The notes under the pieces: model-generated | The model's input: only the letters and a program-made list of their open reading frames with translations | Told to the model about the DNA's origin: nothing | The model's database searches: none | Position numbers and translations under genes: made by a program | Assembly: GCA_965224275.1 (NCBI GenBank) | Contig: CBDCYR010000005.1 | Coordinates: forward strand, 386,903 to 450,902 | Length of the DNA stretch: 64,000 nt | From: Alphaproteobacteria bacterium | Lineage (GTDB): Bacteria; Pseudomonadota; Alphaproteobacteria; SHVV01 | Direction: 5' to 3' | Shown: positions 3,762-59,881 of the stretch, piece after piece | Position numbering within the stretch: position 1 is the first letter of the stretch | How the letters are laid out: the number at the start of each line of letters is the position of its first letter

Positions 3762-3849
3762 ATACCCCTCACCCCACCCCTCTCCCACAAGGGGAGAGGG
3801 AGTACATCAGCGCACGGAGAGGTTCCCTCTCCCCCTTGTGGGAGAGGGG
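3762..3849. repeat. REP-like palindromic intergenic element (CCCTCACCCC / CCCTCTCCC-N-GGGAGAGGG units) split by IS256 insertion; remainder at 5244-5270
   Basis: Seen in sequence. Imperfect inverted units CCCCTCTCCCacaaGGGGAGAGGG and CCCTCTCCCccttgtgGGAGAGGGG..GGGTGAGGGGG. Related copies at 20405-20500 and 21945-21992. Confidence 0.5.
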
Positions 3850-5243: not shown

Positions 5244-5281
5244 GAGAGGGGTAGGGTGAGGGGGTTTGTTTGTTCCTAGTA

Positions 5282-27352: not shown

Positions 27353-28564
27353 ATGAACAATACCGACACCGCTACGCCTGAGCTAGGGTCCGGACCACTC
27401 GCGGGGATCCGCGTCATCGACTTCACGCATATGCTCGCGGGCCCCTACGCAACCTGGATATTGGGCGCACTTGGCGCCGACGTCATCAAGGTCGAACGTC
27501 CCGAAACCGGCGATTTCACACGCGCGATCGAACCCCGCATCGGCGGCGAGAGCGTCTATTTCGCCAGCGTCAACCGCAACAAACGCAGCATCACCATAAA
27601 CCTTAAGTCCGACGAGGGTCGTGAGATCGCTCGAAAGCTTGTCGCTGGCGCCGATATTCTGGTCGAGAACAACCGGCCCGGTGTGATGGATCGACTCGAG
27701 CTCGGTTACGAAGCCCTCAGCGCGATCAATCCCGGCCTGGTCTACGCCTCGATCTCCGGTTTCGGCCAGACCGGACCGTTGCGCGATCGGCCAGCATTTG
27801 ACATGGTCATCCAGGCCATGTCGGGGATGATGAGCATCACCGGCACGCCCGATGGTCCGCCCGTGCGAGTGGGGACATCGCTCGGTGATATCGGCTCGAG
27901 TCTGTTCGGGACAGTTGGCATTCTCGCCGCGCTGCAAGAACGCAATCGCACCGGCAAAGGCGCCGCGATCGACGTCGCCATGCTCGACAGCCAGTTGGCG
28001 ATCCTCGAAAACGCCATCGCGCGCTGGTTCAATACCGGTCAGCGCCCTCAGCCGCTCGGCTCACGCCACCCCATGGTGGCCCCGTTCCAGGCTTTCGCGA
28101 CGCAGGATGAACCCATCGTCGTCTGCGTCGACACCACCGCTCAGTGGCAGCGATTGTGCGACGCGATGGCGCGCCCCGAATTGATCGGGGATCCGCGGTT
28201 CGCCGATAGCAATGATCGAGTCCGCAACCACGCCGAACTCGAGCCCGAACTCATGCGCACCTTCGCAACCCGCACACGTGACGAATGGCTCGCCGCGCTT
28301 GAGGTCGCCGACATCCCGTGCGGATCGGTCAATGCGATCGACCAAGCCATGGCATTGGATCAGGTCGCGGCGCGCGACATGATCTCCGACCTCGCCGATC
28401 AAGGCAGCGGACAATTCGTCGCCATGCCGATACGCACCGGATCACAGGAACCACTGGTTGAGCGTCGCGCCCCTCATCTCGGCGAGCACACCGACCAGGT
28501 TCTTGGCGAACTCGATTATTCCGCCGCCGATGTCGAACGTTTGCGCGCAATCGGCGCCGTCTAG
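27353..28564 (+). CDS. Family III CoA-transferase (CaiB/BaiF/Frc family)
   Basis: IRVIDFTHMLAGPYATWILGALGADVIKVE N-terminal signature. Confidence 0.8.
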   Translation: MNNTDTATPELGSGPLAGIRVIDFTHMLAGPYATWILGALGADVIKVERPETGDFTRAIEPRIGGESVYFASVNRNKRSITINLKSDEGREIARKLVAGADILVENNRPGVMDRLELGYEALSAINPGLVYASISGFGQTGPLRDRPAFDMVIQAMSGMMSITGTPDGPPVRVGTSLGDIGSSLFGTVGILAALQERNRTGKGAAIDVAMLDSQLAILENAIARWFNTGQRPQPLGSRHPMVAPFQAFATQDEPIVVCVDTTAQWQRLCDAMARPELIGDPRFADSNDRVRNHAELEPELMRTFATRTRDEWLAALEVADIPCGSVNAIDQAMALDQVAARDMISDLADQGSGQFVAMPIRTGSQEPLVERRAPHLGEHTDQVLGELDYSAADVERLRAIGAV

Positions 28565-28598
28565 CGGAACAAACCGATCAACAGGGGAGTTACAGCCC

Positions 28599-29498
28599 AT
28601 GGCCACCTTCACGACCACCGATGGCGTTCAGCTCTATTTCGAGGAAACCGGCGCCGGAACGCCGATCATCTTCGTGCACGAGTTTTCCGGTGACTATCGT
28701 GCCTGGGAACATCAGGTTCGCTTCTTCAGCCGCCGCTATCGCTGCATTACCTTTAACGCGCGCGGCTATCCGCCCTCGGAAGTGCCTGATGATGTCGAGC
28801 TCTATAGCCAGACGCGCGCAGTTACGGATATCTGCGAGACCCTCGATCACCTTGGTATCGACACGGCCCATGTTGTCGGCTTGTCGATGGGTGGCTTCGC
28901 CGCGATGCATTTCGGGCTGGACTACGCCGATCGCGCGCGCTCGGTCGTCATTGGCGGTGTCGGCTTTGGCGCCGACCCCAGTACCGCCGATAAGTTCCGC
29001 GACGAAGTCGAAGCCGTCGCCCGGCGCTGGGAGGACGAAGGCCCGGAGATATTCGCGCCGATCTATGGCCGGGGTCCGGGCCGCGAGCAGCTCGAAAACA
29101 AGGATCCGCGTGGCTTCGATGAATTCATCAAGCAACTCCAGCAACATTCCGGCCGCGGCGCCGCAATGACGCTACGCGGCGTGCAAATGCGCCGGCCCTC
29201 GCCGTGGGACCTGCGCGACCGTCTCGCCGAAATGACCGTTCCCGCCCTCGTCCTGCATGGCGATGAAGACCGCCCGGCGTTGCCGACCGGCGTGTTCCTC
29301 AAACAGACGATCCCCACAGCCGGCCTGGTGGTCCTGCCCAAGACCGGCCACACCGCCAACCTCGAAGAACCGGCCGCCTTCAATCAGGCGGTCCAGGATT
29401 TCATCCTCACCGTCGACAATGGCCGCTGGGAGCGCCGCGACAAACGCACCGAAAGCGAAGCCATCCTCTTAGAGTCCGACTCGAAACTCTATGTTTGA
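28599..29498 (+). CDS. Alpha/beta-fold hydrolase; native last two codons and stop (EK*) replaced by 8 IS-encoded residues because IS5 copy 2 inserted at 29472
   Basis: GLSMGG nucleophile elbow. ORF ends ...ILLESDSKLYV* inside the IS. Removing the IS with TSD TTA restores ...ILLEK*. Confidence 0.7.
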   Translation: MATFTTTDGVQLYFEETGAGTPIIFVHEFSGDYRAWEHQVRFFSRRYRCITFNARGYPPSEVPDDVELYSQTRAVTDICETLDHLGIDTAHVVGLSMGGFAAMHFGLDYADRARSVVIGGVGFGADPSTADKFRDEVEAVARRWEDEGPEIFAPIYGRGPGREQLENKDPRGFDEFIKQLQQHSGRGAAMTLRGVQMRRPSPWDLRDRLAEMTVPALVLHGDEDRPALPTGVFLKQTIPTAGLVVLPKTGHTANLEEPAAFNQAVQDFILTVDNGRWERRDKRTESEAILLESDSKLYV

Positions 29499-30403
29499 TA
29501 ACAGTACCTTGCGAGCCGCCTTGTGAGGAGTCGGATGTTGGCGACAAGAATCCATGCCTGTGCGGAGGCGATTGATTTCTCCCAATCCTTGGCCAGTCGA
29601 CGGCATCGGTTGAGCCAGGCGAAGGTCCTCTCGACGACCCATCGTCTGGGCAGGAGCTCGAAGCCCTGGGCGGTGTCTGAGCGCTTGATGATCTCGAGCT
29701 TCCAGCGGCCGATGTCCTCAAGGGCGCCCTCGAGTTTCGGTCCCGCGTAGGCGGCGTCGGCGAAGAGGTGACGCAGCCGGGGGAAGCGATGACGGATCGA
29801 TTTGAGGACCTCGGGCGCGCCGTCGCGGTCCTGGATATCGGCTGCGTGCACGATCAGGCCGACCAGCAGGCCGAGTGTATCGGTGACGATGTGACGCTTG
29901 CGGCCCTTGATCTTCTTGCCCGCGTCATAGCCCCGAACACCACCGCTTTCCGTGGTTTTCACGCTCTGGCTGTCGATCACCCCGGCGCTCGGGCCGGCCT
30001 CGCGTCCTTCCAGCTCCCGGGCCGCCATGACCAGGTGATGGTTGATGCTCTCCAGCAGGCCGTTGGAGCGCCAGTCGTAGAAATAGCGCTGGACCGTGGA
30101 AGGCGGAGGGAAGTCGTTCGGCAACATCGCCCACTGGCAGCCCGTCGAGGCCATGTACATGACCGCATCCATGACATGGCGCAGGTCCGTCGTCCTCGGC
30201 CGGCCGATCTTCTTGCGCGGCGGCATGAGCGGCGCGATCAACGCCCACTCTCGATCCGTCAGGTCGCTTGCGTAGCGCCCGCCACGGCGCTCATAATTCG
30301 GGCGAGTGATTTCGGTCCACATGTTGTGCCTCCTCGTTTGCTTTGACACAACCGAGTAAGCCACAACCGACTGAAATCACTCAACTAGTTTCGGGTTGGC
30401 CTC
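29472..30403 (-). mobile_element. IS5-family insertion sequence copy 2, 932 bp, TSD TTA
   Basis: Identical to copy 1. TTA at 29469-29471 and 30404-30406. Confidence 0.9.
29489..30364 (-). CDS. IS5-family transposase
   Basis: Identical protein to copy 1. Confidence 0.85.
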   Translation of the reverse strand: MAYSVVSKQTRRHNMWTEITRPNYERRGGRYASDLTDREWALIAPLMPPRKKIGRPRTTDLRHVMDAVMYMASTGCQWAMLPNDFPPPSTVQRYFYDWRSNGLLESINHHLVMAARELEGREAGPSAGVIDSQSVKTTESGGVRGYDAGKKIKGRKRHIVTDTLGLLVGLIVHAADIQDRDGAPEVLKSIRHRFPRLRHLFADAAYAGPKLEGALEDIGRWKLEIIKRSDTAQGFELLPRRWVVERTFAWLNRCRRLAKDWEKSIASAQAWILVANIRLLTRRLARYCYQT

Positions 30404-30503
30404 TTAGAGAAGTAACGCCAGGACAGCGGACAACGACACCAACGTCCCTCTCGCAAGCGAACAAGGATTTGCCGCACCTCGACAAGCTCCCTCGCCCTTC
30501 GGG

Positions 30504-35145: not shown

Positions 35146-35452
35146 ACCGGCCTCGTCGAGGTTTGGTTAGGGACCGCGCGGGCGCTGCAGCGGCCCTGCT
35201 GCCGCGCAACTAAGACGCGATAACGTATACGGTTTCCGGCCGAAAACCATCATGTGGCCATCTGTTTTGCAGAGTTCGGCAGATCATTCCATGACTACCC
35301 GCCGACATCGGCGCGCTGGCGTGTGGGTTGATGGATGATGTGTAAAATGCCGGCATCATTAACCTAAGTTGGTGAGCGCCGAACATTATCGGTCAGGGTT
35401 GCGAGTGATCGGCGCACCATTCACACTGGGCGATCGAACCAGGAGCAAAGTT

Positions 35453-36553
35453 ATGTTTCTCAGGAATTACTGGTACGCAGCAGGGTTTAGCGAGGAAGTC
35501 GGACGCGATTTTCTCGCCCGCACTTATCTCAACGAAGACGTGGTGATCTTCCGTAAGGAAGACGGCACGCCGGTCGCATTGGAAAACCGTTGCGCCCATC
35601 GCCGCCTGCCCTTGTCGATGGGTAAGCTGATCGGCGATACCGTCGAGTGCGGCTATCACGGTTTGCTCTACGATTGCGCCGGCGCCTGCATCAAGATTCC
35701 AGGCCAGGACCGTGTTCCTAAAGGCACCGGCGTCAAGTCCTACCCGATTGTTGAGCGGCACCGTTATCTATGGATCTGGATGGGCGATCCTAAACGCGCC
35801 GATGAGGCGGAGATTCCCGATTTCAGCCGCATCGACGATCCCGCCTATGGCGTCTCCAACATCAAGCTTCGCCACAATGCCCACGTGCAACTCCTTATCG
35901 ATAATTTGATGGATTTATCACATCTTGCTTATGTCCACAGCACCACCACGGGAAGCCCGCAAATTGCCGAGCTCGCCGAGGTCGATACCATCCGTGAGGG
36001 CAACACAGTCAGCGTCAAGCGATGGATGGAGGATGTACCGGCACCGCGAACCCACCGCGAATTTGGCGGCTACAATGGCAATATGGATAGCTGGCAGGTA
36101 TCGGAGTTCAGTCCCCCAACCTATGTACGCGTTAGCTACGGTTCGCGCGGGACCGGCAACGGCGTGCCCAAAACCGACTGGTTCGACGATCAGGGACACT
36201 GGGGGTTCTACGTGTTTCACGGCCTGACGCCCGAGACCGATATGACGGCCCATCAATTCCGCTACATCGCCTTCGCAAAAGGCATCGGCAATAAGAAGCA
36301 AACCAAGGAGTTCATCCGTCAGTGCGATCAGATCATCACCGAGGACGCGGTTGTCTTCCCGATCCAGCAACGGGCCATCAACGATGATCTAGCCGAAACC
36401 GACGCCTGGAACATCAACGAACGGGTCCGCTTGATCCACGACGGTGGCCTCCTGCAATCGCGCCAGATCGTTGAGGATTTGTTGGCCCAGCAAGCCGCCA
36501 AGAAAAAGAAATCGGCGCGTAAAAAGCCCGGCAAACGCGCCGCTGCCCGTTAA
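35453..36553 (+). CDS. VanA-like Rieske oxygenase (vanillate O-demethylase oxygenase / KshA-type), copy 1, with Lys/Arg-rich C-terminal tail
   Basis: AGGAG RBS then ATG 35453 (MFLRNYWYAAGF). CAHRRLPLS...CGYHGL Rieske motif. Tail AAKKKKSARKKPGKRAAAR. Confidence 0.8.
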   Translation: MFLRNYWYAAGFSEEVGRDFLARTYLNEDVVIFRKEDGTPVALENRCAHRRLPLSMGKLIGDTVECGYHGLLYDCAGACIKIPGQDRVPKGTGVKSYPIVERHRYLWIWMGDPKRADEAEIPDFSRIDDPAYGVSNIKLRHNAHVQLLIDNLMDLSHLAYVHSTTTGSPQIAELAEVDTIREGNTVSVKRWMEDVPAPRTHREFGGYNGNMDSWQVSEFSPPTYVRVSYGSRGTGNGVPKTDWFDDQGHWGFYVFHGLTPETDMTAHQFRYIAFAKGIGNKKQTKEFIRQCDQIITEDAVVFPIQQRAINDDLAETDAWNINERVRLIHDGGLLQSRQIVEDLLAQQAAKKKKSARKKPGKRAAAR

Positions 36554-36573
36554 CGTTTCCAAGGAAGATCAAC

Positions 36574-37734
36574 ATGTTTCTGAGAAACCACTGGTACGTG
36601 GCCGCTTGGAGCGATGAACTCGGCAAAGACCCGCTCGCGGTCAAAATGCTCAATGAAGACGTCATGCTTTATCGCAAGCAGGATGGAACGCCGGTCGCGC
36701 TCGAAGATCGCTGCGCCCATCGCCGGCTACCGCTTTCGGAAGGAAAACTGATCGGCGACACCGTCGAGTGCGCCTATCACGGCCTCACCTATGATTGCAA
36801 TGGTACCTGCATCAAGGTCCCCGGTCAGGGCCGCTGGCCCAAGAAACTGGGCGTCAAATCATATCCGGTCGTCGAACGGCACCGGTTTATCTACGTCTGG
36901 ATGGGTGATGTCGAGGACGCCGAGGAGGCGCTGATCATCGATTTCCCGCTCCTGACCGACCCCGCATGGGGGGTGACCAAGATCCACCTCGATATCAAGG
37001 CCAACTACCTCCTGATCATCGACAACCTGCTCGAACTCAGCCACGTCGCCTACCTTCATTCGTCGACCATTGGCAACGCCCCGGTCGCCGAAGACGCCTA
37101 TGTTGCCTTCCATCGCGAGGGTAACGCAGTCCGGGTGATGCGTGAAATGGTCGACGTGCCGGCAGCCCGTACCTATGCCGAGTTCGGCGGTGAAGTCGCC
37201 AATTTCGATCGCTGGCAGACCTCGGAATTTCGCCCGCCCGCTTATTTCCTGATCAACAACGGGTCTGAAGCCACCGGTCGCCGGGCACCGGGCGACCATC
37301 GGCTGTGGGATCGCGGCGAGTGGGGCTTCCAGGTCTATCACGGGATCACCCCCGCCACCGAGAAGACCACGCATCAGTTTTGGGCGATCTGCCACCCCTT
37401 GGCGATGGTCCCTAAAAAGGGCCGCAAGGAGTTTTATCGCCAGTGTCATGAGGTGATCTGGGAAGACGTTGGCGTCTACCAGGCGCAACAGGTTTCACTC
37501 GACACCGATCCCGAGGGTCCGAGCGCCGACAACGTCAACGCCAAGGTGCGAATTGATTACGACGGCGCGTTCTTCGAAGCACGCCGAGTCATCAAGCGGA
37601 TGCTGAAAGAGGAAGCCGCGGCCGCGAAAGCCAAAAGGGCGCGCAAGTCGAAAAAGCGCGGCCGCAAGACTGCTCCGGTTGCCTGGATTTCTGTGCGCGG
37701 CGAACAGCAAGCACACCAACAGGCTGCTGAATAG
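36574..37734 (+). CDS. VanA-like Rieske oxygenase, copy 2, with Lys/Arg-rich C-terminal tail
   Basis: AAGGAAG RBS. MFLRNHWYVAAWSDE; CAHRRLPLS...CAYHGL. Tail AKAKRARKSKKRGRK. Confidence 0.8.
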   Translation: MFLRNHWYVAAWSDELGKDPLAVKMLNEDVMLYRKQDGTPVALEDRCAHRRLPLSEGKLIGDTVECAYHGLTYDCNGTCIKVPGQGRWPKKLGVKSYPVVERHRFIYVWMGDVEDAEEALIIDFPLLTDPAWGVTKIHLDIKANYLLIIDNLLELSHVAYLHSSTIGNAPVAEDAYVAFHREGNAVRVMREMVDVPAARTYAEFGGEVANFDRWQTSEFRPPAYFLINNGSEATGRRAPGDHRLWDRGEWGFQVYHGITPATEKTTHQFWAICHPLAMVPKKGRKEFYRQCHEVIWEDVGVYQAQQVSLDTDPEGPSADNVNAKVRIDYDGAFFEARRVIKRMLKEEAAAAKAKRARKSKKRGRKTAPVAWISVRGEQQAHQQAAE

Positions 37735-38406
37735 GCGATCACGGAGGTATCGGTGTTTCTGAGAGATTATTGGTACCTCGCGGCCTGGGCGCGTGACGTT
37801 GGGCGCGATCCGCTCGGGCGCGTGATGCTCGGCGAACCCGTGGTCTTGTTCCGCAAGCAGGACGGCACGCCTGTCGCTTTGGAAGACCGTTGCATTCACC
37901 GCCGCCTGCCGTTGTCGATGGGCAAGATGATCGGCGACGAGTTGCAATGCCATTACCACGGCCTGGTGTTCGACTGTTCGGGCGCGTGCGTCAAAATCCC
38001 GGGTCAGGATCGGGTCCCCAAATCGGCCCGGGTCAGGAGCTACCCCGTCGTCGAGCGCAATCAATGCGTCTTTGTCTGGATGGGCGATCCCGCCCAACCG
38101 GACGAGTCAAGGATCCCCACCCACTTTAACCTGCTCGATGAAGAGGGCTGGACCTCGAGCCTGGTCTATCGCCCGGTACGTTGCCACTACGAACTGATCA
38201 ACGACAATCTTCTCGATCTGTCCCACCTTGCCACGGTGCACGCCTCGACCGTCGGCACCGGCCACGTTGCCGATTTCGCCGATGTCGAAACCGAGCACGA
38301 GGGTCATCACATCAAAGTTTCACGCTGGACGATGGACGTGCCGGCCGCGACCACCTATCAGCAGTTCGGCAATTACGAGAGCAATATCGACCGTTGGCAG
38401 GTCTCA

Positions 38407-39338
38407 GAGTCCGACTCGAAACTCTATGTTTGATAACAGTACCTTGCGAGCCGCCTTGTGAGGAGTCGGATGTTGGCGACAAGAATCCATGCCTGTGCGG
38501 AGGCGATTGATTTCTCCCAATCCTTGGCCAGTCGACGGCATCGGTTGAGCCAGGCGAAGGTCCTCTCGACGACCCATCGTCTGGGCAGGAGCTCGAAGCC
38601 CTGGGCGGTGTCTGAGCGCTTGATGATCTCGAGCTTCCAGCGGCCGATGTCCTCAAGGGCGCCCTCGAGTTTCGGTCCCGCGTAGGCGGCGTCGGCGAAG
38701 AGGTGACGCAGCCGGGGGAAGCGATGACGGATCGATTTGAGGACCTCGGGCGCGCCGTCACGGTCCTGGATATCGGCTGCGTGCACGATCAGGCCGACCA
38801 GCAGGCCGAGTGTATCGGTGACGATGTGACGCTTGCGGCCCTTGATCTTCTTGCCCGCGTCATAGCCCCGAACACCACCGCTTTCCGTGGTTTTCACGCT
38901 CTGGCTGTCGATCACCCCGGCGCTCGGGCCGGCCTCGCGTCCTTCCAGCTCCCGGGCCGCCATGACCAGGTGATGGTTGATGCTCTCCAGCAGGCCGTTG
39001 GAGCGCCAGTCGTAGAAATAGCGCTGGACCGTGGAAGGCGGAGGGAAGTCGTTCGGCAACATCGCCCACTGGCAGCCCGTCGAGGCCATGTACATGACCG
39101 CATCCATGACATGGCGCAGGTCCGTCGTCCTCGGCCGGCCGATCTTCTTGCGCGGCGGCATGAGCGGCGCGATCAACGCCCACTCTCGATCCGTCAGGTC
39201 GCTTGCGTAGCGCCCGCCACGGCGCTCATAATTCGGGCGAGTGATTTCGGTCCACATGTTGTGCCTCCTCGTTTGCTTTGACACAACCGAGTAAGCCACA
39301 ACCGACTGAAATCACTCAACTAGTTTCGGGTTGGCCTC
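38407..39338 (-). mobile_element. IS5-family insertion sequence copy 3, 932 bp, TSD TCA
   Basis: TCA at 38404-38406 and 39339-39341. One nucleotide difference from copies 1 and 2. Confidence 0.9.
38424..39299 (-). CDS. IS5-family transposase
   Basis: Identical protein to copies 1 and 2. Confidence 0.85.
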   Translation of the reverse strand: MAYSVVSKQTRRHNMWTEITRPNYERRGGRYASDLTDREWALIAPLMPPRKKIGRPRTTDLRHVMDAVMYMASTGCQWAMLPNDFPPPSTVQRYFYDWRSNGLLESINHHLVMAARELEGREAGPSAGVIDSQSVKTTESGGVRGYDAGKKIKGRKRHIVTDTLGLLVGLIVHAADIQDRDGAPEVLKSIRHRFPRLRHLFADAAYAGPKLEGALEDIGRWKLEIIKRSDTAQGFELLPRRWVVERTFAWLNRCRRLAKDWEKSIASAQAWILVANIRLLTRRLARYCYQT

Positions 39339-40055
39339 TCAGAATATTTCCCGCCTTCCTATTGCCGCATCAACAACGGCGCCGCGGCGGTCAATACCGG
39401 CGCGCGCGAGGGCAAGGGCGAAAAGCGCTGGGATTTCTGGGTCAGCCACGGCATCACGCCGGAGTCCGAAACCTCGACTCACTATTTCTGGGCCCTCGCC
39501 CATCGCACCTGGACCAACAACCAAGACGACATCGAGGAGTTCCACCGCCAGTGCCATCACGTCGTCGGCGAAGATCTTGCCGTGTTTGCGGCCCAGCAGG
39601 CATCTATCGACCTCGACCCCGGCGCGCCCACCCTCGATATCCGCTACGACGCCGGCCCCATGATGGCCCGCCGTATCATCAACGAACTGCTAGAGGCCGA
39701 GCGAACACCTCCTGCAAACCACGAGTAGCGGTTCTGCAGCCCTTTGGGTGTTCCGCTAACCCAACCGTCGAACCGCGCATGCGGTTGTGGCGCTCTTGGG
39801 TATTTTGATTAGAGGCGGAGGCGTCCGGCTAGTTCGGGCAGAACATCCCAGAAGTTCTGCCAACCCAACACCGGACATTTCTAAGCGCTCGTGGGTCGCA
39901 CACGAATCATCATCGACGGCCTGCTCCCGTGAGCCGGTCTTGATCATTCCCCTCCTGCGGGTAAAGGACGGTCGCGTCCATTCGAACCTCAGGAATAGAC
40001 CGGGGCCGAAGCTCCATCTTGATTCGAATGACACTCGTACTATATATTATTACGA

Positions 40056-42649: not shown

Positions 42650-44050
42650 GGACGTTCCAACAAGGCACACGAAGGCCGCTAATTAGCCAATACCGGTCGT
42701 GGCCGCATGAAGAAAAGTCAGCCCAGACGAGAGCGGGCCTACCACGGCCATAAGATGTTCATCGGCGCTGCGGATCTCGACCGCTCGATAATCGCTTGGC
42801 AGGCTGGGGGCGAAACGCAATGAAGAGTTTGCAGGACATCTTTGATGCTGTGGACGGCGCCCTGTTCGGCATCTAGGTGCCAAAGTGGTAGCTGTTAGAG
42901 ACCACTTAAAAGGGGAGCCGTCCGACATGAATGTTAGCAGAATTGGTCTAGATATCGCGAAGAACGTGTTTCAGGTTCACGGCGTCGATGAGGCGGGTGA
43001 AGTCGTCATCCGCAAGCAACTGAGGCGCAGCCAGGTGATGCCCTTCTTCGAGAAGCAGTCTTCGTGCCTGGTCGGCATTGAGGCCTGCGCCACGTCCCAC
43101 CACTGGTCGCGCGAGCTGCAAGCTTTGGGTCATGAGGTTCGGCTGATGCCGGCGGGCTATGTGAAGGCCTACGTGAAGCGCAACAAGAACGATGCGGCCG
43201 ATGCTGAGGCGATCTGCGAGGCAGTGACACGGCCGACGATGCGGTTCGTGGCAACCAAGACCAAGGAGCAGCAGAGCGTCTTGATGGTGCACAAGACGCG
43301 ACAGTTGCTGGTCCGTCAACGGACCATGCTGAGCAATGCGATGCGCGGCCACTTTGCTGAGTTTGGGATCACCGCGCGGGTCGGACGCCTGGGCTTGGGG
43401 AAGCTCCTAGCGATTGTTCAGGATCAAGATGACCAGCAGATCCCCGCCTTTGCTCGGCTGGCATTGATCGCTTTGGCAGACCACTACCAGACGGTACATG
43501 CGAAGATTGTCGCGCTCGAGCGCAGCCTGAATGCTTGGCATCGCTCGAATGAGACCAGCCGACGCTTGGCGGAGATTCCAGGCGTCGGCCCGCTCGTGGC
43601 CACGGCATTGACCGCGAGTGTGACGGATCCGACAGTCTTCTCTTCGGGGCGAAGTATGGCGGCCTGGATCGGATTGGTGCCGAGGGAGAACTCCACTGGC
43701 GGCAAACGCCGGCTCGGACCGATCTCCAAGCAGGGCAACCGCTATCTCCGATGGATGCTGGTGACAGGCGCTATGGCGGTGATCCGTTACGCCAAGAAAA
43801 CGGGCTTTAAGAAACGACCTTGGTTGGCCCGATTGGTCGAAAACCGCCCGATCAAGCTCGCGGCGGTGGCGCTGGCCAACAAGATCGCCCGCATCGCCTG
43901 GGTGATCATGGCGCGCGGTGAACGCTATAAGGAGCCGGCCCTGACGGCCGCATAAAGAAATCGGTGTAGGCCGGAGCCTACGCAACGAAATTGGGAAGGG
44001 CTGACGACGTCATGCAGCAACGGTCGATCCGGGGATTGGAAGAGCCCGCT
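42650..44050 (+). mobile_element. IS110-family insertion sequence (approximate extent; this family lacks classical IRs/TSDs so ends are not determinable by eye)
   Basis: Contains IS110-type transposase gene. Hairpin GTAGGCcggaGCCTAC just downstream of tnp stop. Confidence 0.45.
42927..43955 (+). CDS. IS110-family transposase (DEDD type)
   Basis: AAAGGGGAG RBS then ATG 42927 (MNVSRIGLDIAKNVFQVHGVD...). C-terminal IS116/IS110/IS902 domain (LVPRENSTGGKRRLGPISKQGNRYLR). Confidence 0.85.
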   Translation: MNVSRIGLDIAKNVFQVHGVDEAGEVVIRKQLRRSQVMPFFEKQSSCLVGIEACATSHHWSRELQALGHEVRLMPAGYVKAYVKRNKNDAADAEAICEAVTRPTMRFVATKTKEQQSVLMVHKTRQLLVRQRTMLSNAMRGHFAEFGITARVGRLGLGKLLAIVQDQDDQQIPAFARLALIALADHYQTVHAKIVALERSLNAWHRSNETSRRLAEIPGVGPLVATALTASVTDPTVFSSGRSMAAWIGLVPRENSTGGKRRLGPISKQGNRYLRWMLVTGAMAVIRYAKKTGFKKRPWLARLVENRPIKLAAVALANKIARIAWVIMARGERYKEPALTAA

Positions 44051-46938: not shown

Positions 46939-47049
46939 GCGCTCCAACGGCCTGCTGGAGAGCATCAACCATCACCTGGTCATGGCGGCCCGGGAGCTGG
47001 AAGGACGCGAGGCCGGCCCGAGCGCCGGGGTGATCGACAGCCAGAGCGT
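46939..47049 (+). mobile_element. Internal fragment (~111 bp) of the IS5-family element (encodes SNGLLESINHHLVMAARELEGREAGPSAGVIDSQSV of the transposase)
   Basis: Exact match to an internal segment of the 932-bp IS. No ends or TSD, so it is a remnant. Confidence 0.7.
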
Positions 47050-47265
47050 CAATTTCTATTTGCCGCAGTCTGGTGGCAATGTCCGAGGTAGCTCCCCGTT
47101 GGTCGGTGCGGCCATGAGTCGGAGCTGTTAACGCGGCGCCGATGCGTTGTATGCGCTGACGCGGCCATGATACGCTCCTCTTAACAATAAAATATCGTGT
47201 CGGTTCGATTGCCCGCATTCATTCGAAGCGGTGATCCGACTTCAAGCGACCAAGGGGAGGACAAC

Positions 47266-50199: not shown

Positions 50200-50213
50200 A
50201 CCGCTGCTTCTAA

Positions 50214-51156
50214 GAGTCCGACTCGAAACTCTATGTTTGATAACAGTACCTTGCGAGCCGCCTTGTGAGGAGTCGGATGTTGGCGACAAGAATCCATGCC
50301 TGTGCGGAGGCGATTGATTTCTCCCAATCCTTGGCCAGTCGACGGCATCGGTTGAGCCAGGCGAAGGTCCTCTCGACGACCCATCGTCTGACCTTCACCT
50401 TGGCAGGAGCTCGAAGCCCTGGGCGGTGTCTGAGCGCTTGATGATCTCGAGCTTCCAGCGGCCGATGTCCTCAAGGGCGCCCTCGAGTTTCGGTCCCGCG
50501 TAGGCGGCGTCGGCGAAGAGGTGACGCAGCCGGGGGAAGCGATGACGGATCGATTTGAGGACCTCGGGCGCGCCGTCGCGGTCCTGGATATCGGCTGCGT
50601 GCACGATCAGGCCGACCAGCAGGCCGAGTGTATCGGTGACGATGTGACGCTTGCGGCCCTTGATCTTCTTGCCCGCGTCATAGCCCCGAACACCACCGCT
50701 TTCCGTGGTTTTCACGCTCTGGCTGTCGATCACCCCGGCGCTCGGGCCGGCCTCGCGTCCTTCCAGCTCCCGGGCCGCCATGACCAGGTGATGGTTGATG
50801 CTCTCCAGCAGGCCGTTGGAGCGCCAGTCGTAGAAATAGCGCTGGACCGTGGAAGGCGGAGGGAAGTCGTTCGGCAACATCGCCCACTGGCAGCCCGTCG
50901 AGGCCATGTACATGACCGCATCCATGACATGGCGCAGGTCCGTCGTCCTCGGCCGGCCGATCTTCTTGCGCGGCGGCATGAGCGGCGCGATCAACGCCCA
51001 CTCTCGATCCGTCAGGTCGCTTGCGTAGCGCCCGCCACGGCGCTCATAATTCGGGCGAGTGATTTCGGTCCACATGTTGTGCCTCCTCGTTTGCTTTGAC
51101 ACAACCGAGTAAGCCACAACCGACTGAAATCACTCAACTAGTTTCGGGTTGGCCTC
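50214..51156 (-). mobile_element. IS5-family insertion sequence copy 4 (943 bp: 932 bp plus an 11-bp insertion ACCTTCACCTT at ~50391-50401 that frameshifts the transposase), TSD TAA
   Basis: TAA at 50211-50213 and 51157-51159. Transposase ORF terminates prematurely (240 aa, 50395-51117). Confidence 0.85.
50395..51117 (-). pseudogene. IS5-family transposase, frameshifted by the 11-bp insertion
   Basis: Protein identical to other copies up to ...GFELLPR, then premature stop. Confidence 0.75.
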
Positions 51157-51395
51157 TAAGGACTCTATCAGGAGCGATATCAATGGTTATTCCGACGCCG
51201 TCTCTCTAATTTGCGACATGTTTCGGTGCTCGTCGCTACGCTGGTGGTTTAGAGGAGATCCGCGGCGGCCGAAAGCGTATTGCCAGCAAACAGCGCCAAT
51301 CAGAGCCCGCGTAGCGCCATCACAAAATGACTAAGCTCGCAGGCGAGTGTATGGTGCGCAACCGAACAATCGTCGTGTGGTAGAGGAGGATTACG

Positions 51396-52362: not shown

Positions 52363-53959
52363 CTGTGCCGATATCTCCGGTGCTTCACGATGCTCGCGCA
52401 GGAAGCGCTGCCGAGCGTTCTTTTTTGGTCTTGGGCGTGTAAAAACGTTCGCCGGATTAGCGATGCGGTGAGGGTTAGCGGTGCTGTTCGGGCCTCGTCC
52501 CTTTTTTCGGTTTTAGCTTGTCGTAGGGGCGGATTAGGCTGTTTCACCGCCACGACTGGATCTCGCGAGGGCGTCGCGGCGGTAGCGGGCCCTTACACTA
52601 TGCCCGCATAGCTGCCATCAGGGGTCCGGCGCCGAGAACGTTCATGACTCGCGTCAGATTGTAAGCGAGTACGTGCAGCGCCATTTCGGTTCTGACCCGC
52701 GGCAGCGTCTTCACCAGGAAGTGGGTGGCACCCATTCGGGCTTTGATGGTGCCGAAGGGGTGTTCGACCGTTTCGCGCCGCTGGCGCATCTTTTCCGGAT
52801 GCGCGTCGAGCCGGTGCTGGACCTCTTCCAGAACGTGCTCATGCTCCCAGCGGGTAATTCGGCGCTCTTTGGCGGTGGTGCACTGAGCCTTAATGGCGCA
52901 GTTCTGGCAGACATTGGTCCAGTAGCGACGTAGGGACAGCCCGTGCTCCTCTCTGGTGAAGCGGTAGACCAAGCGCTCGCCGGCTGGACAGACGTACACG
53001 TCCTCATCCTTCACATAGCGGAAGTCCTGCTTGCCGAACTTCCCTTTGGCTTTGATGCCCGAGGTTAGCGGTTTGGGGAGCGTGACTGTGATGCCGGCCT
53101 GATCACATGCCAGGATCTGATTGCTACTGAAGTAGCCGCGATCGGCGACCACCTCGAGTTTATCGACGTTCAGAGCGGCCTTGGTCTGCTCCGCCATGGG
53201 AGAGAGTTGCGCTCTGTCATTGCCAACGTTGGTCACCTTGTGTGTGACGATCAGGTGGTTCGACGTATCGACCGCGGCCTGCACGTTATAGCCAACCACA
53301 CCGGAACCGCGACCGCTGGTAGCCATGGAGCGAGCGTCGGGATCGGTCAAGGAGATCTGATGATCGGGTGTCGCGCGCATACGGGCGTCGAGGGCCGTAA
53401 GCCGTTGCATCTCCAGATGAAGACGCGCGATCTTCTCTTTCAGTCGGGTTACTTTCATCGCAAGCGCTTCCGACGGCTCCTGGCGGTCGGCGCTGTCGAG
53501 CTGATGGAGATAGCGCGACACGCTCTCTTCGATCTGCGCCTTGCGCCGATCCATCTTGGCGCGGGTGAAGTTCCGGTCGCGGTTGTTGACCGCTTTGAAC
53601 TTGCTACCGTCAATCGCAACGCTGGCCGTTGTCAGTAGACCGATCCTCCGGCAAAGCTCGACGAACCGGGCACAGACTTTGCCGATGGCAGCGCCGTTGT
53701 CCTTGCGGAAGTCAGCGATCGTCTTGTGATCCGGCACCAGGCGGCCGGTCAGCCACATGACCTCCACATTGCGCCCGGCTTCGCGTTCGAGACGCCGGCT
53801 CGATTGAACCCGATTAAGATAACCGTAGATGTACAGCTTCAACAGAACCGATGGGTGATAGGACGGACGGCCCGTGGCCGCTGGATCGATACCGCCAAAA
53901 CCAAGCCCACCCAGATCCAGTTCCTCGACAAAGACATCGATCACCCGAACCGGGTTGCC

Positions 53960-55353
53960 GGCTGTGTCTCGAAAGTGGTGGAAATTTGAGGATGGCGTAA
54001 TCTCCGGGTGACAAGACAACCACCCAACCGGCGGCTAGCACCGCCAAGGAGATCACGCCATGAAGAACACTACCGAGACTTCCGCGCTTTCGCTACTGGC
54101 CAATGACGCCGGCTATGATCCGCTCGAGGACCGGCTGCGGGAGAACATCAGATCCACGATCGAGGCCGTTTTTGAGGAGGAACTTGCGCAGTTTCTCGGG
54201 CGCTGCCGATACGGTCGAGAGGACGCGCTTCGGCAAGGGTATCGGAACGGGCACCGGGAGCGGCAACTGACGGGGACATTCGGGACCGAGAGGGTGAGCG
54301 TGCCGCGTGCACGGATCGTTGAGGAAGACGGTCGGGCGTCGGAATGGCGTTCGCGGGCGCTGCCGCGCTACCAGCGGCTGACCAGAAAGGCCGAGGCGCT
54401 GATCGCTTCGGTGTATCTGTCCGGAACCAACACGCGGCGGGTGAAACGCGCGCTGTTCGGGCTCTTCGGGGGTGCTGTGAGCAAGGACGTTGTGAGCCGG
54501 GCGTGGCGCAAGGTGAAGGTCGATTGGGACGCCTGGTGCAGCCGTGGCCTCGCGGATGAGGATATCGTTCGGCTGATCCTTGACGGCACTGTGATCAAGA
54601 CCCGACTGGATCGCAAGGCCACCAACATCTCGGTTCTCGCGGCTATAGGGGTGCGCCGGGATGGCCAGAAGGTCTTGCTTTCGATCGGGAATATGGGCGG
54701 AGAAAGCCAGGCGGCGTGGCGCCAGTTCCTCGACGACCTTGATGCGCGTGGACTGAAACGGCCCGGGTTTGTCATCGTCGATGGCGCGCCGGGACTGGAG
54801 GCGGCTCTGTCGGCGCTTTGGGGCGATGACCTTCCCGTTCAACGCTGCACCGTGCACAAGCACCGCAACCTTCTGGGTCATGCTCCCAAACACATGCATG
54901 ACGAGCTGAGCGAAGATTACCGCGATATGATCTATGCCGACACTGCCTCCGAGGTGGAAACCCGCCGCAAGGCGTTTGTCCGCAAGTGGCGGCTGAAATG
55001 CAGGGCCGTCGCGGACAGCCTCGCAGAAGCGGGCGACAAGCTCTTTACCTTCACGCGCCTGTCCAAGAGCCAATGGAAATCAGCCCGAACGACCAACGCC
55101 ATTGAGCGTCTCAACGAGGAGTTCAAGCGCCGGATCAAAACACAGACCGTGCTGCCGTGTCCCGAAACAGTGCCGATGCTCCTCTGGGCGCTCCTCGCTT
55201 GCGGCCAAATCCAGATGCGCAAAGTCGATGGATGGGAAACCCTCGATCAGCTAATCGCCGACGAAACCCTTGACCGCGCGGCCTGACCGCCGCAAAACTC
55301 AACCCGCTCGGAGAGGCGCCAAAACCAATTTCCACCACTTTCGAGACACAACC
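53960..55353 (+). mobile_element. IS256-family insertion sequence copy B (1394 bp), 9-bp TSD CGGGTTGCC, nested inside the IS1182 transposase gene
   Basis: Same IRs as copy A. CGGGTTGCC at 53951-53959 and 55354-55362. Confidence 0.85.
54060..55286 (+). CDS. IS256-family transposase (408 aa)
   Basis: 1-aa difference from copy A. Confidence 0.9.
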   Translation: MKNTTETSALSLLANDAGYDPLEDRLRENIRSTIEAVFEEELAQFLGRCRYGREDALRQGYRNGHRERQLTGTFGTERVSVPRARIVEEDGRASEWRSRALPRYQRLTRKAEALIASVYLSGTNTRRVKRALFGLFGGAVSKDVVSRAWRKVKVDWDAWCSRGLADEDIVRLILDGTVIKTRLDRKATNISVLAAIGVRRDGQKVLLSIGNMGGESQAAWRQFLDDLDARGLKRPGFVIVDGAPGLEAALSALWGDDLPVQRCTVHKHRNLLGHAPKHMHDELSEDYRDMIYADTASEVETRRKAFVRKWRLKCRAVADSLAEAGDKLFTFTRLSKSQWKSARTTNAIERLNEEFKRRIKTQTVLPCPETVPMLLWALLACGQIQMRKVDGWETLDQLIADETLDRAA

Positions 55354-56681
55354 CGGGTTGCCTTCGTCGATCCAGTCCTCAAGACACTCGGGGAACAGCG
55401 TCGACTGACCCCGGTCCACACCCGCAACGAAACGCTTCATCAAATACTCCCGCCAAACGACGGGAGAATCATAACAACACCAACGTTTTTACACAGGCTG
55501 GGTCATGACAAGCCATTGCCGTTCGAACGCATTCCCGCGCCGATAGCTGCCCCCGGCGCGAAGTGAGCACTCAAGGCCGTAGACATGGCCGATGATTCAG
55601 CGGTCGTCATAGGCGCAGGAATTGCGGGAATATTGGCCGCGTCCGCGCTTGCTCGGCACTTTCGCCGCGTCACGATTGTCGAGCGTGATCGCCTTCGAGA
55701 CGTGCCGGAAGTGCGTAAGGGAACCCCCCAGTCGGCCCACGTTCACATACTTCTCGATCATGGTCTTACGGTTTCCGAAAGTCTTCTGCCGGGCGCGCGA
55801 AAAGCGCTCCTCCAAGCCGGCGCCATCACCATACGCGCAGGCTGGGATGAACGTGTGTTCGATGGCGAGCAGTGGCTTCCCCAGCTCGATTGTGGGATTA
55901 CGAATTTATCCCAGAGCCGGCCAGTATTTGAGAACGCACTGCGCGGCTGCCTGCAGCAATTCGCCAATGTAGACGTCCGGGACGGGACAAGTCTCACCGC
56001 GTTCAGATTGAGCGATAAAGGCTGTGTCACAGGCGTTGACGTGACTGGCCCATCCGGAAAGGCCGAGCATCTACCAGCAACCCTAATTGTTGACGCCTCG
56101 GGAAGAGCCAGCAAATCGGTGCGCTGGCTGGAACAATTAGGGTTTGGTCCGCTGGCAGCGGATGAGATCTGGATCGGTTTGAGTTATGCGAGTGGAATTT
56201 TCAGGCGGTCTCAACAATGGTGCGACAATCCGACGGCTTGGCGGGTTCAGTGCAAGGAGACCATGCGCGGCGGTGTCGTTCGCCCGATCGAGGGAAACCG
56301 CTGGATATTCACCGCCGCCGGCTATTTCGACGATATTCCTCCGATAGACTTGCAGGATATGCTTCGTTTTCTTCGATCCTTGCCGGACCCTCGGCTATAC
56401 GAGTGTATACGCGACGGAGAACTGGAGGGTCGGCTACGGGTTTACCGTACGCCGACAGTCCTCGTGCGCCGATTCGACCGATTGGCCGCGTTGCCAGGCG
56501 GATACATTCCCGTTGGCGACGTTGTGGCCCACCTGAATCCCCTCGGCGGCCAGGGCATGTCCGTTGCCGCGGTCCACGCCGACATATTGCGTAAACATTT
56601 GGAAATGCGAGCCGAAAAACGAACCGGTCCGGAGGAATTTTCTCAGGCGTTCGTCGAGGAGGCTGTTGCCGTAAGCGCTAA

Positions 56682-57613
56682 GAGGCCAACCCGAAACTAG
56701 TTGAGTGATTTCAGTCGGTTGTGGCTTACTCGGTTGTGTCAAAGCAAACGAGGAGGCACAACATGTGAACCGAAATCACTCGCCCGAATTATGAGCGCCG
56801 TGGCGGGCGCTACGCAAGCGACCTGACGGATCGAGAGTGGGCGTTGATCGCGCCGCTCATGCCGCCGCGCAAGAAGATCGGCCGGCCGAGGACGACGGAC
56901 CTGCGCCATGTCATGGATGCGGTCATGTACATGGCCTCGACGGGCTGCCAGTGGGCGATGTTGCCGAACGACTTCCCTCCGCCTTCCACGGTCCAGCGCT
57001 ATTTCTACGACTGGCGCTCCAACGGCCTGCTGGAGAGCATCAACCATCACCTGGTCATGGCGGCCCGGGAGCTGGAAGGACGCGAGGCCGGCCCGAGCGC
57101 CGGGGTGATCGACAGCCAGAGCGTGAAAACCACGGAAAGCGGTGGTGTTCGGGGCTATGACGCGGGCAAGAAGATCAAGGGCCGCAAGCGTCACATCGTC
57201 ACCGATACACTCGGCCTGCTGGTCGGCCTGATCGTGCACGCAGCCGATATCCAGGACCGCGACGGCGCGCCCGAGGTCCTCAAATCGATCCGTCATCGCT
57301 TCCCCCGGCTGCGTCACCTCTTCGCCGACGCCGCCTACGCGGGACCGAAACTCGAGGGCGCCCTTGAGGTCATCGGCCGCTGGAAGCTCGAGATCATCAA
57401 GCGCTCAGACACCGCCCAGGGCTTCGAGCTCCTGCCCAGACGATGGGTCGTCGAGAGGACCTTCGCCTGGCTCAACCGATGCCGTCGACTGGCCAAGGAT
57501 TGGGAGAAATCAATCGCCTCCGCACAGGCATGGATTCTTGTCGCCAACATCCGACTCCTCACAAGGCGGCTCGCAAGGTACTGTTATCAAACATAGAGTT
57601 TCGAGTCGGACTC
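56682..57613 (+). mobile_element. IS5-family insertion sequence copy 5, 932 bp, TSD TAA; transposase carries TGG->TGA nonsense change at the MW(TEI) codon plus one missense (D->V)
   Basis: TAA at 56679-56681 and 57614-57616. ATGTGAACC at 56763 versus ATGTGGACC in the other copies. Confidence 0.85.
56721..57596 (+). pseudogene. IS5-family transposase with premature stop near the N-terminus (downstream Met ORF 56844-57596 remains)
   Basis: See mobile_element entry. Confidence 0.7.
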
Positions 57614-57960
57614 TAAGGCATGGCGTATCTTCGCGATGCGCGATTTACAGCATCCAGCCGCGAGGGGCGAACGCCCGGTCAATTTCGACGAAGTAAAACG
57701 AATAATACGCGGCGTCGACAAACTCGTAAGTATAGATCCTGAAATCCATGAGATGACCCTCAAGATCAGAAATATGCTGGCGGAGCCCAGCGTTCTGCAA
57801 ACCCCGGAAATAGTGAGACGCGTATTGGCATTAAGTTAGAGAACGCGGCGGAAAATCTCGGTTTCCACGCCGCTCTATGACACAGGCTCCCTGAATCGGT
57901 TGAGAACCAAAACAACCGCTATGCTACGGTTATGCAAATCAAATAATAAGGGAGGAACCC

Positions 57961-58875
57961 ATGATTATTGATAGTCATGTCCATGTCGTTGGCAACCCAG
58001 CATCCAACGCACCCGACTACATCACGGTAAAACGAGACGCGGTGTTGCTTCGCCGTCGCCACCCCGATGTCTTCGCGGCCCATTGGGACCGATTGGAAGA
58101 CATGAGCGACCTCCTGATCGAGGACATGGATGCTTTCGGCATCGACAAGGCCGTCGTCCAGCCGGCGCGCGGCGAGTCGCTGGAGTTGGTTGCTCAAGCC
58201 GTGGCGAAGTATCCAGACCGCCTGGTCGGTTTGTTCATGTCCGGTTACAACGAGTTTTTTGGAAAAAATCCCATCGTTGCGGGCGGTCCGACGCAAAAGC
58301 CTGACCTCAACCAATTTGCCGACAACGTCCGCCATTGGGTCAAGGATCTGGGGCTGAGGGGATTCGGCGAATTCGGCGTCCGCACATTTAGTGAGGAATC
58401 CGATCCCAGCATGATCGCCCGCGATCTCATGCCGGTGATGGAAATCATTAACGAGTACAAAATTCCGGTCTTGATTCACACCGCGTGGACACAGTTTGGA
58501 ACCAAGCTCTATCACGGCATTCCGATGTTCGTTGATGATCTGGCTGAGCAATTTCCCGAGATTCCGTTTGTGCTGACCAAAATGGGGCGCGGTTACAACT
58601 TCATCTTCGAGATCTGCATCGCTCTGGCGATGAAGCACGATAACGTCTACCTCGACACGGTTCAGTCGCCGCCCGAACACGTGGCGCGGGCCGTCCGCGA
58701 GGTCGGTGCGGAGCGCGTTATGTACGGGACGGACTGGGACCCTACCTGGCGGCCGCTTAGCCTGCCCGAGGGAATCTATGGACGCACCCTGGCTGTCATC
58801 GAAGACGTCGGACTCACCGACGATCAAAAAGAGCAAGTGCTGGGCAAGACCTCGGCAGCGCTCTACGGGATGTAG
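57961..58875 (+). CDS. Amidohydrolase-2 (PF04909) family protein, paralogue
   Basis: GGGAGGAACCC RBS. Motifs IIDSHVHVVGNPASN, AWTQFGTKLYHG, KMGRGYNFIFE, YGTDW. Confidence 0.75.
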   Translation: MIIDSHVHVVGNPASNAPDYITVKRDAVLLRRRHPDVFAAHWDRLEDMSDLLIEDMDAFGIDKAVVQPARGESLELVAQAVAKYPDRLVGLFMSGYNEFFGKNPIVAGGPTQKPDLNQFADNVRHWVKDLGLRGFGEFGVRTFSEESDPSMIARDLMPVMEIINEYKIPVLIHTAWTQFGTKLYHGIPMFVDDLAEQFPEIPFVLTKMGRGYNFIFEICIALAMKHDNVYLDTVQSPPEHVARAVREVGAERVMYGTDWDPTWRPLSLPEGIYGRTLAVIEDVGLTDDQKEQVLGKTSAALYGM

Positions 58876-58924
58876 CGCCGCGGCGTAAGCCGCCTCCACG
58901 TAGAAAAGTGAGGAGAACGTACCC

Positions 58925-59881
58925 ATGACAAATGATGCACGACGTTCGATCATCGATATTCATTGTCATCCCTTCGGCAATCCGGCCTGCGACCTAACCG
59001 AGCATATCAAAGTGAAACGCGACGCCGTGTTGTTGAGACGCAAGCAACCGGATCTATTTGCCGAGCAATGGGGGGTTCTGGAAGATATTTCCGATCTATT
59101 GATCCACGACATGGATGAACGCGGCGTCGAAGTCGCGCTGGTTCAGGCCTCGGTCGGCGAACCCGCCGACAAAGTCGCGGAAGCAGTAAAGAAATATCCT
59201 GAGCGCTTCATCGGTCTGTGCAGTACTGGTCACTACGACTTTTATCCTGGCACTCACCCGGTTCTGGAGAAGCCCGACTACGTCAAACTGACCGAAGACA
59301 TTCGTTACCAGGTCGAGGAACTTGGATTTCGCGGGCTCGGAGAGGTCGCCGTGCGTTTATTCAGCAACGAATCGGCGCCGGACCGGATCGCCAAGGACAT
59401 GATCCCCCTGATGGAAATCCTCAATCAGCATAAGATTCCGGTGATGCTGCTAACCGCGTGGACTCAATTCGGGACGCCGCTCTACCATGGTCTCCCGCTT
59501 TATATGGACGATCTAGCCGAAAGCTTTCCCGACGTACCTATCGTCGTCATGAAGATGGGGCGGGGTTACGATTCCTTCTTCGAGATGGCGCTGGCACTCG
59601 CCACCAAGCACGACAATATTTATCTCGAGACCGCGCAAGCGCCTATGGCACACATTGAGCGCGCTGTACGCGAGGTCGGCGCCAGCCGGGTTGTCTTCGG
59701 CACCGATTGGTGCAGCACCTGGCGTCAGTTGGCTGCCCCAAATAACATGTTGGGGCTTGGGGTAGACGCTTTGGAGAAGGCGGATATCAGTGACGAGGAC
59801 CGCGACTGGATTCTCGGCAAGACGGCAGCGGAACTCTATAAAATCGATCTGTCCAAAATGGGTAGAAACGCCGTATCTTGA
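58925..59881 (+). CDS. Amidohydrolase-2 (PF04909) family protein, paralogue
   Basis: GAGGAGAACG RBS. Motifs IIDIHCHPFGNPACDLT, AWTQFGTPLYHG, KMGRGYDSFFE, FGTDW. Confidence 0.75.
   Translation: MTNDARRSIIDIHCHPFGNPACDLTEHIKVKRDAVLLRRKQPDLFAEQWGVLEDISDLLIHDMDERGVEVALVQASVGEPADKVAEAVKKYPERFIGLCSTGHYDFYPGTHPVLEKPDYVKLTEDIRYQVEELGFRGLGEVAVRLFSNESAPDRIAKDMIPLMEILNQHKIPVMLLTAWTQFGTPLYHGLPLYMDDLAESFPDVPIVVMKMGRGYDSFFEMALALATKHDNIYLETAQAPMAHIERAVREVGASRVVFGTDWCSTWRQLAAPNNMLGLGVDALEKADISDEDRDWILGKTAAELYKIDLSKMGRNAVS

Follow-up and report, generated by a model that had tools for sequence, protein, structure and literature searches.

In the window analysed here (the whole stretch of DNA, 64,000 nucleotides long), a gene for a flavin monooxygenase has in all probability been disrupted by a 932-bp insertion sequence (IS) of the IS1031 group, which severed its last 73 codons. 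The split gene and the inserted element consist of the following parts:

55585..56681, plus strand: 5′ part of the flavin monooxygenase gene, 366 codons, identical to the database protein P0001.
56679..56681: left target-site duplication TAA, within CTAAG (56678-56682).
56682..57613, plus strand: IS copy 5, IS5 family, IS1031 group, 932 bp, with GAG...CTC ends, delimited by aligning the five copies with their flanks.
56683..56700, plus strand: IS-encoded tail RPTRN and a stop, which end the truncated ORF (from the ORF list and the join).
56763..57596, plus strand: transposase gene of copy 5; the master copies have 277 codons here, and codon 2 is TGA in the window.
57614..57616: right target-site duplication TAA, within CTAAG (57613-57617).
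57617..57839, plus strand: 3′ part of the monooxygenase gene, displaced by the IS, with 73 codons and a stop.

The 5′ part carries the FAD motifs GxGxxG, DASGR and GD...NP..GQGM. Native sequence extends to 56681 and the element starts at 56682, exactly where the earlier note had the gene meet the IS, the final base of the 366th codon (AAG) being supplied by the first base of the IS. Thus, the 371-aa ORF of the ORF list (55585-56700) is composed of 366 native and five IS-encoded codons (RPTRN*). The same list contains an orphan 67-aa ORF (57636-57839), which had been taken for the displaced 3′ end and is indeed part of the 73-codon segment with which the original frame resumes at 57617; the count of about 75 codons to the stop at 57839 was therefore close. 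Joining 55585-56681 to 57617-57839, which leaves out the IS and one copy of the repeat, yields 1320 nt in frame, that is, 439 codons (440 had been expected) and a stop, and neither part contains internal stops or frameshifts. The displaced segment amounts to 73 of the 439 residues, or 16.6% of the protein, in line with the loss of about 17% estimated beforehand. The 73 codons stranded downstream of the IS lack a start signal of their own, and there is no paralogue in the window, as tblastn of the reconstruction against it returned the two gene pieces only.

The earlier note had named homology broken at the junction as the outcome that would speak against this reconstruction. What was found is an unbroken alignment. 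The reconstructed protein aligns end to end with full-length 441-aa homologues at 62% identity and 99-100% coverage, and more than 100 homologues of ~450 aa at 33-39% identity are among the matches listed; the match to the epoxidase MonCI likewise extends over residues 6-432. In the homologue alignment, the junction ...AVAVSAK|AWRIFAMRDLQHP... is spanned without a gap. The displaced segment contains 10 invariant columns (W368, D375, P379, G383, R385, P386, F389, D406, H410 and P429), all of them kept in the window, and the first, W368, lies two residues beyond the junction. Among the 120 homologues listed, none ends naturally near residue 366 save the window's own protein. Homology through the junction is thus far above chance.

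The uninterrupted allele is also on record. P0121, a protein of 439 aa that is 96% identical to the reconstruction, is the second member of the exact-sequence cluster of the truncated protein. Its contig (L006; ENA ERZ26166108) is 96-97% identical to the window in DNA through the neighbourhood and preserves the order Rieske oxygenase, DctP, DctQ, DctM, amidohydrolase, FAD gene. At the insertion point it reads ...GCCGTAAGCG-CTAAG-TCATGGCG..., with a single CTAAG, whereas the window has CTAAG-IS-CTAAG. The insertion of copy 5 thus took place in a CTAAG site, with duplication of TAA. Excision of the IS and one repeat restores a continuous ORF with homology to the intact relatives, and the empty site is found in L006; these two features mark an IS-disrupted pseudogene. 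L006 also lacks IS copy 4 and a 3.06-kb block of two further IS elements. At the site of copy 4 (window 50210-51160, L006 8659-8665) it reads CTAG, whereas the window flanks imply CTAAG, a 1-nt difference that is either a polymorphism or a long-read homopolymer error. On the other side of the comparison, the occupied junctions recur with identical flanks in L001 (1.28 Mb) and L002 (10.02 Mb; ERZ26694896 ctg118121), long-read contigs that were obtained independently from other samples and show 99.7% identity to the window. Neither the empty-site sequence nor the occupied left junction was found in a scan of JGI metagenome contigs, and no relative of the reconstructed protein was found in a scan of the species-representative genomes, which places the source species outside that collection.

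Elements of the IS1031 group measure ~850-950 bp and have short terminal inverted repeats starting with GAG (ISfinder group tables). The termini of copy 5 read GAGGCC...GGACTC, and its inverted repeats (56682-56698 and 57597-57613), both of which begin with GAG, match at 14 of 17 positions. The transposase, which in copies 1 to 3 is encoded by one uninterrupted 277-aa ORF (MWTEITRPNYERRGGRYASDLTDREW...), scores 247 bits against the NCBIfam model transpos_IS5_3 (cut-off 110) and matches the Pfam families DDE_Tnp_1 (E = 2e-39) and DUF4096 (E = 8e-27). In the published definition of the IS1031 group, the target is TNA and the direct repeat is exclusively 3 bp long (PMC12016507). An IS5-type DDE transposase, a TNA target with a 3-bp repeat, a length of 932 bp and GAG ends are all found in this element, so its size, its GAG ends, its single ORF and its 3-bp TNA duplication place it in the IS1031 group of the IS5 family. 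The IS427 group, whose members have two ORFs and a frameshift, was considered and rejected on account of the uninterrupted 277-aa ORF of the master copies. The truncation of the oxidoreductase by what had been called IS5 copy 5 thus stands, while the element is not IS5 proper, being ISRm4-like and of the IS1031 group.

Of the annotated elements, ISRm4-3 of Sinorhizobium meliloti comes closest, being 72% identical in DNA from end to end and 73% identical in protein. ISRm4 and ISRm4-3 share with the element a length of ~932 bp, a single 277-aa DDE transposase, GAG...CTC ends, insertion into CTNAG and a TNA duplication, and the CTTAG/GAG...CTC architecture of ISRm4-3 is that of the window's element. 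By ISfinder convention, an isoform has more than ~90% DNA or 95% protein identity. Both values to ISRm4-3 being too low for an ISRm4 isoform, this assignment was rejected; the divergence indicates a distinct ISRm4 relative, which would receive a new name under the ISfinder naming convention and is probably unnamed so far. Among the species-representative genomes, the IS end occurs in uncultured Alphaproteobacteria/Rhodospirillaceae MAGs only, at 76-87% identity.

The window harbors five IS1031-like copies that are 99-100% identical and lie within 32 kb, copies 1-4 on the minus strand (at ~25.6, 29.5, 38.4 and 50.2 kb) and copy 5 on the plus strand. Aligned with its flanks, every copy reads GAGGCCAACCCGAAACT...AGTTTCGAGTCGGACTC and is bordered on both sides by TAA, TTA or TGA embedded in CTNAG. 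Copies 1 and 2 have the same, undamaged sequence, from which copy 3 departs by one base. Copy 4 (50215-51155) contains an 11-bp insertion (AAGGTGAAGGT) that shifts the frame of its transposase, and copy 5 has two private substitutions in the window, TGG>TGA at codon 2 (56766-56768) and a D-to-V change. Transposase genes are accordingly damaged in two of the five copies. The orthologue of copy 5 in both L001 and L002 has the master sequence, free of the two substitutions. Being common to the window, L001 and L002, the insertion predates the split of these three genomes; being private to the window, the nonsense codon indicates that copy 5 lost its transposase there afterwards. The loss had been described as recent, which holds in a relative sense only, the insertion being present in three assemblies and two private substitutions having arisen in the window's copy 5 since.

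Other traces of this element are found in the window. Copy 2 (29473-30402) lies two codons ahead of the stop of an alpha/beta-hydrolase gene (28458-29472, resumed at 30408) and is probably harmless to the enzyme, since it replaces the last two residues only. In addition, a stretch of 114 nt in the spacer between a Rieske oxygenase gene and dctP (46939-47052) is 99% identical to an internal stretch of the transposase gene (57014-57127) and stands in place of 21 nt found in L001, L002 and L006. It may represent a genuine templated patch, or else an error made locally during assembly or polishing.

The reconstructed protein is predicted, from its sequence and its modelled fold, to be a class A flavin monooxygenase of the MonCI/Lsd18 lineage. 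Residues 6-365 match the Pfam family FAD_binding_3, and the invariant columns include GAGIAG (10-15), DASGR (170-174) and GD (312)...NPLGGQGMS (318-326), so that the GxGxxG, DG-type and GD-type fingerprints that characterize class A flavin monooxygenases are united in one polypeptide. No NCBIfam model reaches its cut-off for the reconstruction. The best match, QhpG (NF049967), was rejected at 45 bits against a cut-off of 240, the likeness being confined to the N-terminal Rossmann region (residues 7-179). Among solved structures, the sole strong matches are the flavin-dependent epoxidases MonCI (monensin) and Lsd18/LasC (lasalocid), represented by PDB 8t3p, 9udb, 8up4 and 8wvb, with E = 8e-49 for the single sequence (residues 6-432) and 8e-95 for the family profile. 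MonCI and Lsd18 are class A flavin monooxygenases whose FAD- and substrate-binding domains are tightly integrated (PMC10560226, PMC12144862). The AF2 model of the reconstruction (pLDDT 86.5, pTM 0.88) superposes in Foldseek on Lsd18/MonCI over the full length with a TM of 0.90-0.91 at 28-31% identity; KMO, squalene epoxidase, Bmp2 and MHPCO follow, the first three of them far behind. Model and search agree on a fold of the PHBH/squalene epoxidase type with no separate NAD(P)H domain. The likeness to MonCI and Lsd18 comprises the whole-length class A fold, including the C-terminal helices lost here, and the variants DA(S/T)GR and GD...NP..G.GMS of the FAD fingerprints; the window protein differs in being ~50-70 residues shorter.

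In the AF2 model, the junction falls inside a helix predicted at 349-376, and the lost part comprises the remainder of this helix and helices 389-403, 407-417, 423-427 and 429-438. This region aligns to MonCI residues ~393-465, including Arg412 and Arg454, which are reported to contact the carrier-protein partner of MonCI (PMC10560226). The GxGxxG, DASGR and GD fingerprints are all present in the truncated 371-aa product, which could fold partly. Nevertheless, the truncated protein has very likely lost its function, because a conserved and confidently folded part is missing. A non-functional product would deprive the cell of the oxygenation step unless this is backed up by a paralogue encoded at another place in the genome.

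It may be asked whether the gene had begun to decay, or could be dispensed with, ahead of the insertion, in which case the IS would not be the cause of the loss of function. Consistent with this idea, the region contains many IS elements, the neighboring VanA-like paralogue is also split, and L006 carries its own deletion in a downstream amidohydrolase gene. On the other hand, both parts are free of stops and frameshifts and keep all invariant residues, and the 5′ part differs between the window and L006 by 25 synonymous and 11 non-synonymous changes. The stranded 3′ fragment shows six synonymous and seven non-synonymous changes against L006, a ratio that is not significantly different from the 25:11 of the 5′ part (Fisher p = 0.18). 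When polarized with the 62% homologues P0002-4 as outgroups, most C-terminal changes fall on the L006 branch, so there is no detectable decay of the 3′ fragment. Decay ahead of the insertion is therefore very unlikely, and disruption of an intact gene by copy 5 remains the preferred reading.

A second alternative involves the elements that precede the monooxygenase gene, absent from L006 as a block:

52435..55500: 3.06-kb block of two other IS elements, with approximate boundaries.
52598-54019, minus strand: IS5/IS1182-like transposase with DUF772, DDE_Tnp_1 and DDE_Tnp_1_6 domains.
53959-55354: IS256-like element, inside or adjoining the IS5/IS1182-like element.

The block ends ~85 bp upstream of the monooxygenase start codon and shows TGTGTAAAAACGTT-type inverted ends and an imperfect 8-bp repeat (GGTCTTGG / GGTCATGA) at its edges; the IS256-like element is seemingly nested near one end of the IS5/IS1182-like element. 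Since both the block and copy 5 are absent from L006, the monooxygenase gene has been hit twice in the lineage of the window. The insertion of copy 5 might have been selected if read-through or an outward promoter of the IS drove the amidohydrolase genes at 57961-59881, offsetting an upstream block that cut the native operon. The IS, the gene and the two downstream amidohydrolase genes share the same orientation, the block parts the region from the preceding genes, and the insertion is fixed in three assemblies. However, 55300-58100 contains no sigma-70-like promoter on either strand (1.1 expected), which leaves an IS-borne outward promoter without support, codon 2 of the copy 5 transposase is a stop in the window, and fixation among closely related genomes needs no selection. 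We thus regard IS-driven expression as the reason for the insertion as quite improbable, and a simple disruption as the better account. In the latter, copy 5 and the block 85 bp upstream would separate the gene from its neighbors, and transcription of the downstream amidohydrolase genes may be affected.

Least credible is the notion that an assembler placed a repeated IS inside a gene that is uninterrupted in the real genome: five near-identical copies within 32 kb are a setting in which short-read assemblers can err, and the odd 114-nt fragment at 46939-47052, missing from the sister assemblies, makes local errors conceivable, but a 3-bp duplication without mismatch and a reading frame restored exactly on excision are the signature of transposition and not of a mis-join, private substitutions set copy 5 apart from the other copies, and identical junctions in two independent long-read contigs from different samples establish that the insertion is not an assembly artefact. 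The disruption of the monooxygenase gene is therefore a case of routine IS-mediated pseudogenization. As in the classical IS-mediated inactivation of catabolic genes, a simple insertion, a target duplication, a split coding region and an empty site in a relative are found; the mechanism is the same and not new, and only the particular gene and element differ and are new.

The copy 3 insertion had been put forward as a second loss of an oxygenase in the same region, and the VanA-like gene in question is indeed broken by this copy:

37753..39728, plus strand: third tandem VanA-like Rieske oxygenase gene, split into 37753-38407 and 39343-39728.

Copy 3 occupies 38407-39338, with GAG...CTC ends and its target-site duplication seen as CTCAG at 38403-07 and 39338-42. 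Joining 37753-38407 to 39343-39728 gives 346 aa in frame, and the junction ...NIDRWQVSE|YFPPSYCRINNG... matches ...NFDRWQTSEFRPPAYFLINNG in the paralogue. The VanA_C model has 193 positions, of which the truncated ORF matches only 79. The three VanA-like genes stand in tandem (35369-38407) and form repeat family D7 with ~74-75% DNA identity, a local paralogue expansion in which the third copy alone is disrupted by an IS.

Further mobile elements surround these genes, and the window contains at least four different IS families. Two IS256-like (Transposase_mut) elements, 3849-5244 and 53959-55354, measure 1396 bp each, are 100% identical and inverted, and bracket 48.7 kb that include most of the catabolic genes and four of the IS1031-like copies, an architecture that resembles a composite transposon. 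L006 lacks the right-hand element and has its flanks joined directly, which makes this copy, at least, a simple insertion. An amidohydrolase gene and an adenylate/guanylate cyclase gene flank an IS110-family transposase gene (42885-43955; DEDD_Tnp_IS110 and Transposase_20). In L006, a deletion of ~370 bp of its own is located within the first downstream amidohydrolase gene (L006 11727-11965, window 58245-58854), and an integrase and an IS91-type element are found further on. These L006-specific features indicate that the cluster is eroding differently in the two lineages.

The genes at 26-64 kb encode an enoyl-CoA hydratase, a CoA-transferase, an alpha/beta hydrolase, a nitrilase-type hydrolase, three tandem VanA-like Rieske oxygenases and another Rieske oxygenase, a TetR regulator, an SRPBCC protein, four PF04909 amidohydrolases, two TRAP transporters, Meth_synt_2 proteins, a CMD protein and a molybdo-flavoprotein dehydrogenase. 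No genes for a polyketide synthase, a carrier protein or an epoxide hydrolase/cyclase were found in this part of the window or in the L003, L004 and L006 loci. As a label, polyether epoxidase was rejected: the similarity to MonCI/Lsd18 is there and the polyketide cluster is not, and with no polyketide machinery nearby the protein should not be filed under this function. MonCI/Lsd18-like homologues of ~450 aa are widespread in Alphaproteobacteria, where they number in the hundreds, many of them in Bradyrhizobium. In the window, L004 and L006, such genes stand beside Rieske/VanA-like oxygenases, TRAP transporters and amidohydrolases; in L004, the 62% homologue adjoins two VanA-like genes. A role of the monooxygenase in aromatic-acid catabolism may reasonably be inferred.

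For annotation, these results mean that the 371-aa database entry P0001 is a truncated pseudogene product, that the 67-aa ORF is not a gene and that the IS is a probably unnamed relative of ISRm4. The occupied and the empty allele, both of which are in public data, document the ongoing IS-driven erosion of an aromatic-catabolic cluster. More broadly, close relatives of MonCI and Lsd18 occur in non-polyketide, catabolic settings. It is conceivable, though rather doubtful at present, that the MonCI/Lsd18-like enzymes constitute a catabolic branch of a family so far known from polyether antibiotic biosynthesis only. If so, the two oxygenase knock-outs would represent the selected pruning of an aromatic-degradation pathway and not neutral decay, and the natural pair of occupied and empty alleles would provide a direct handle for testing this.
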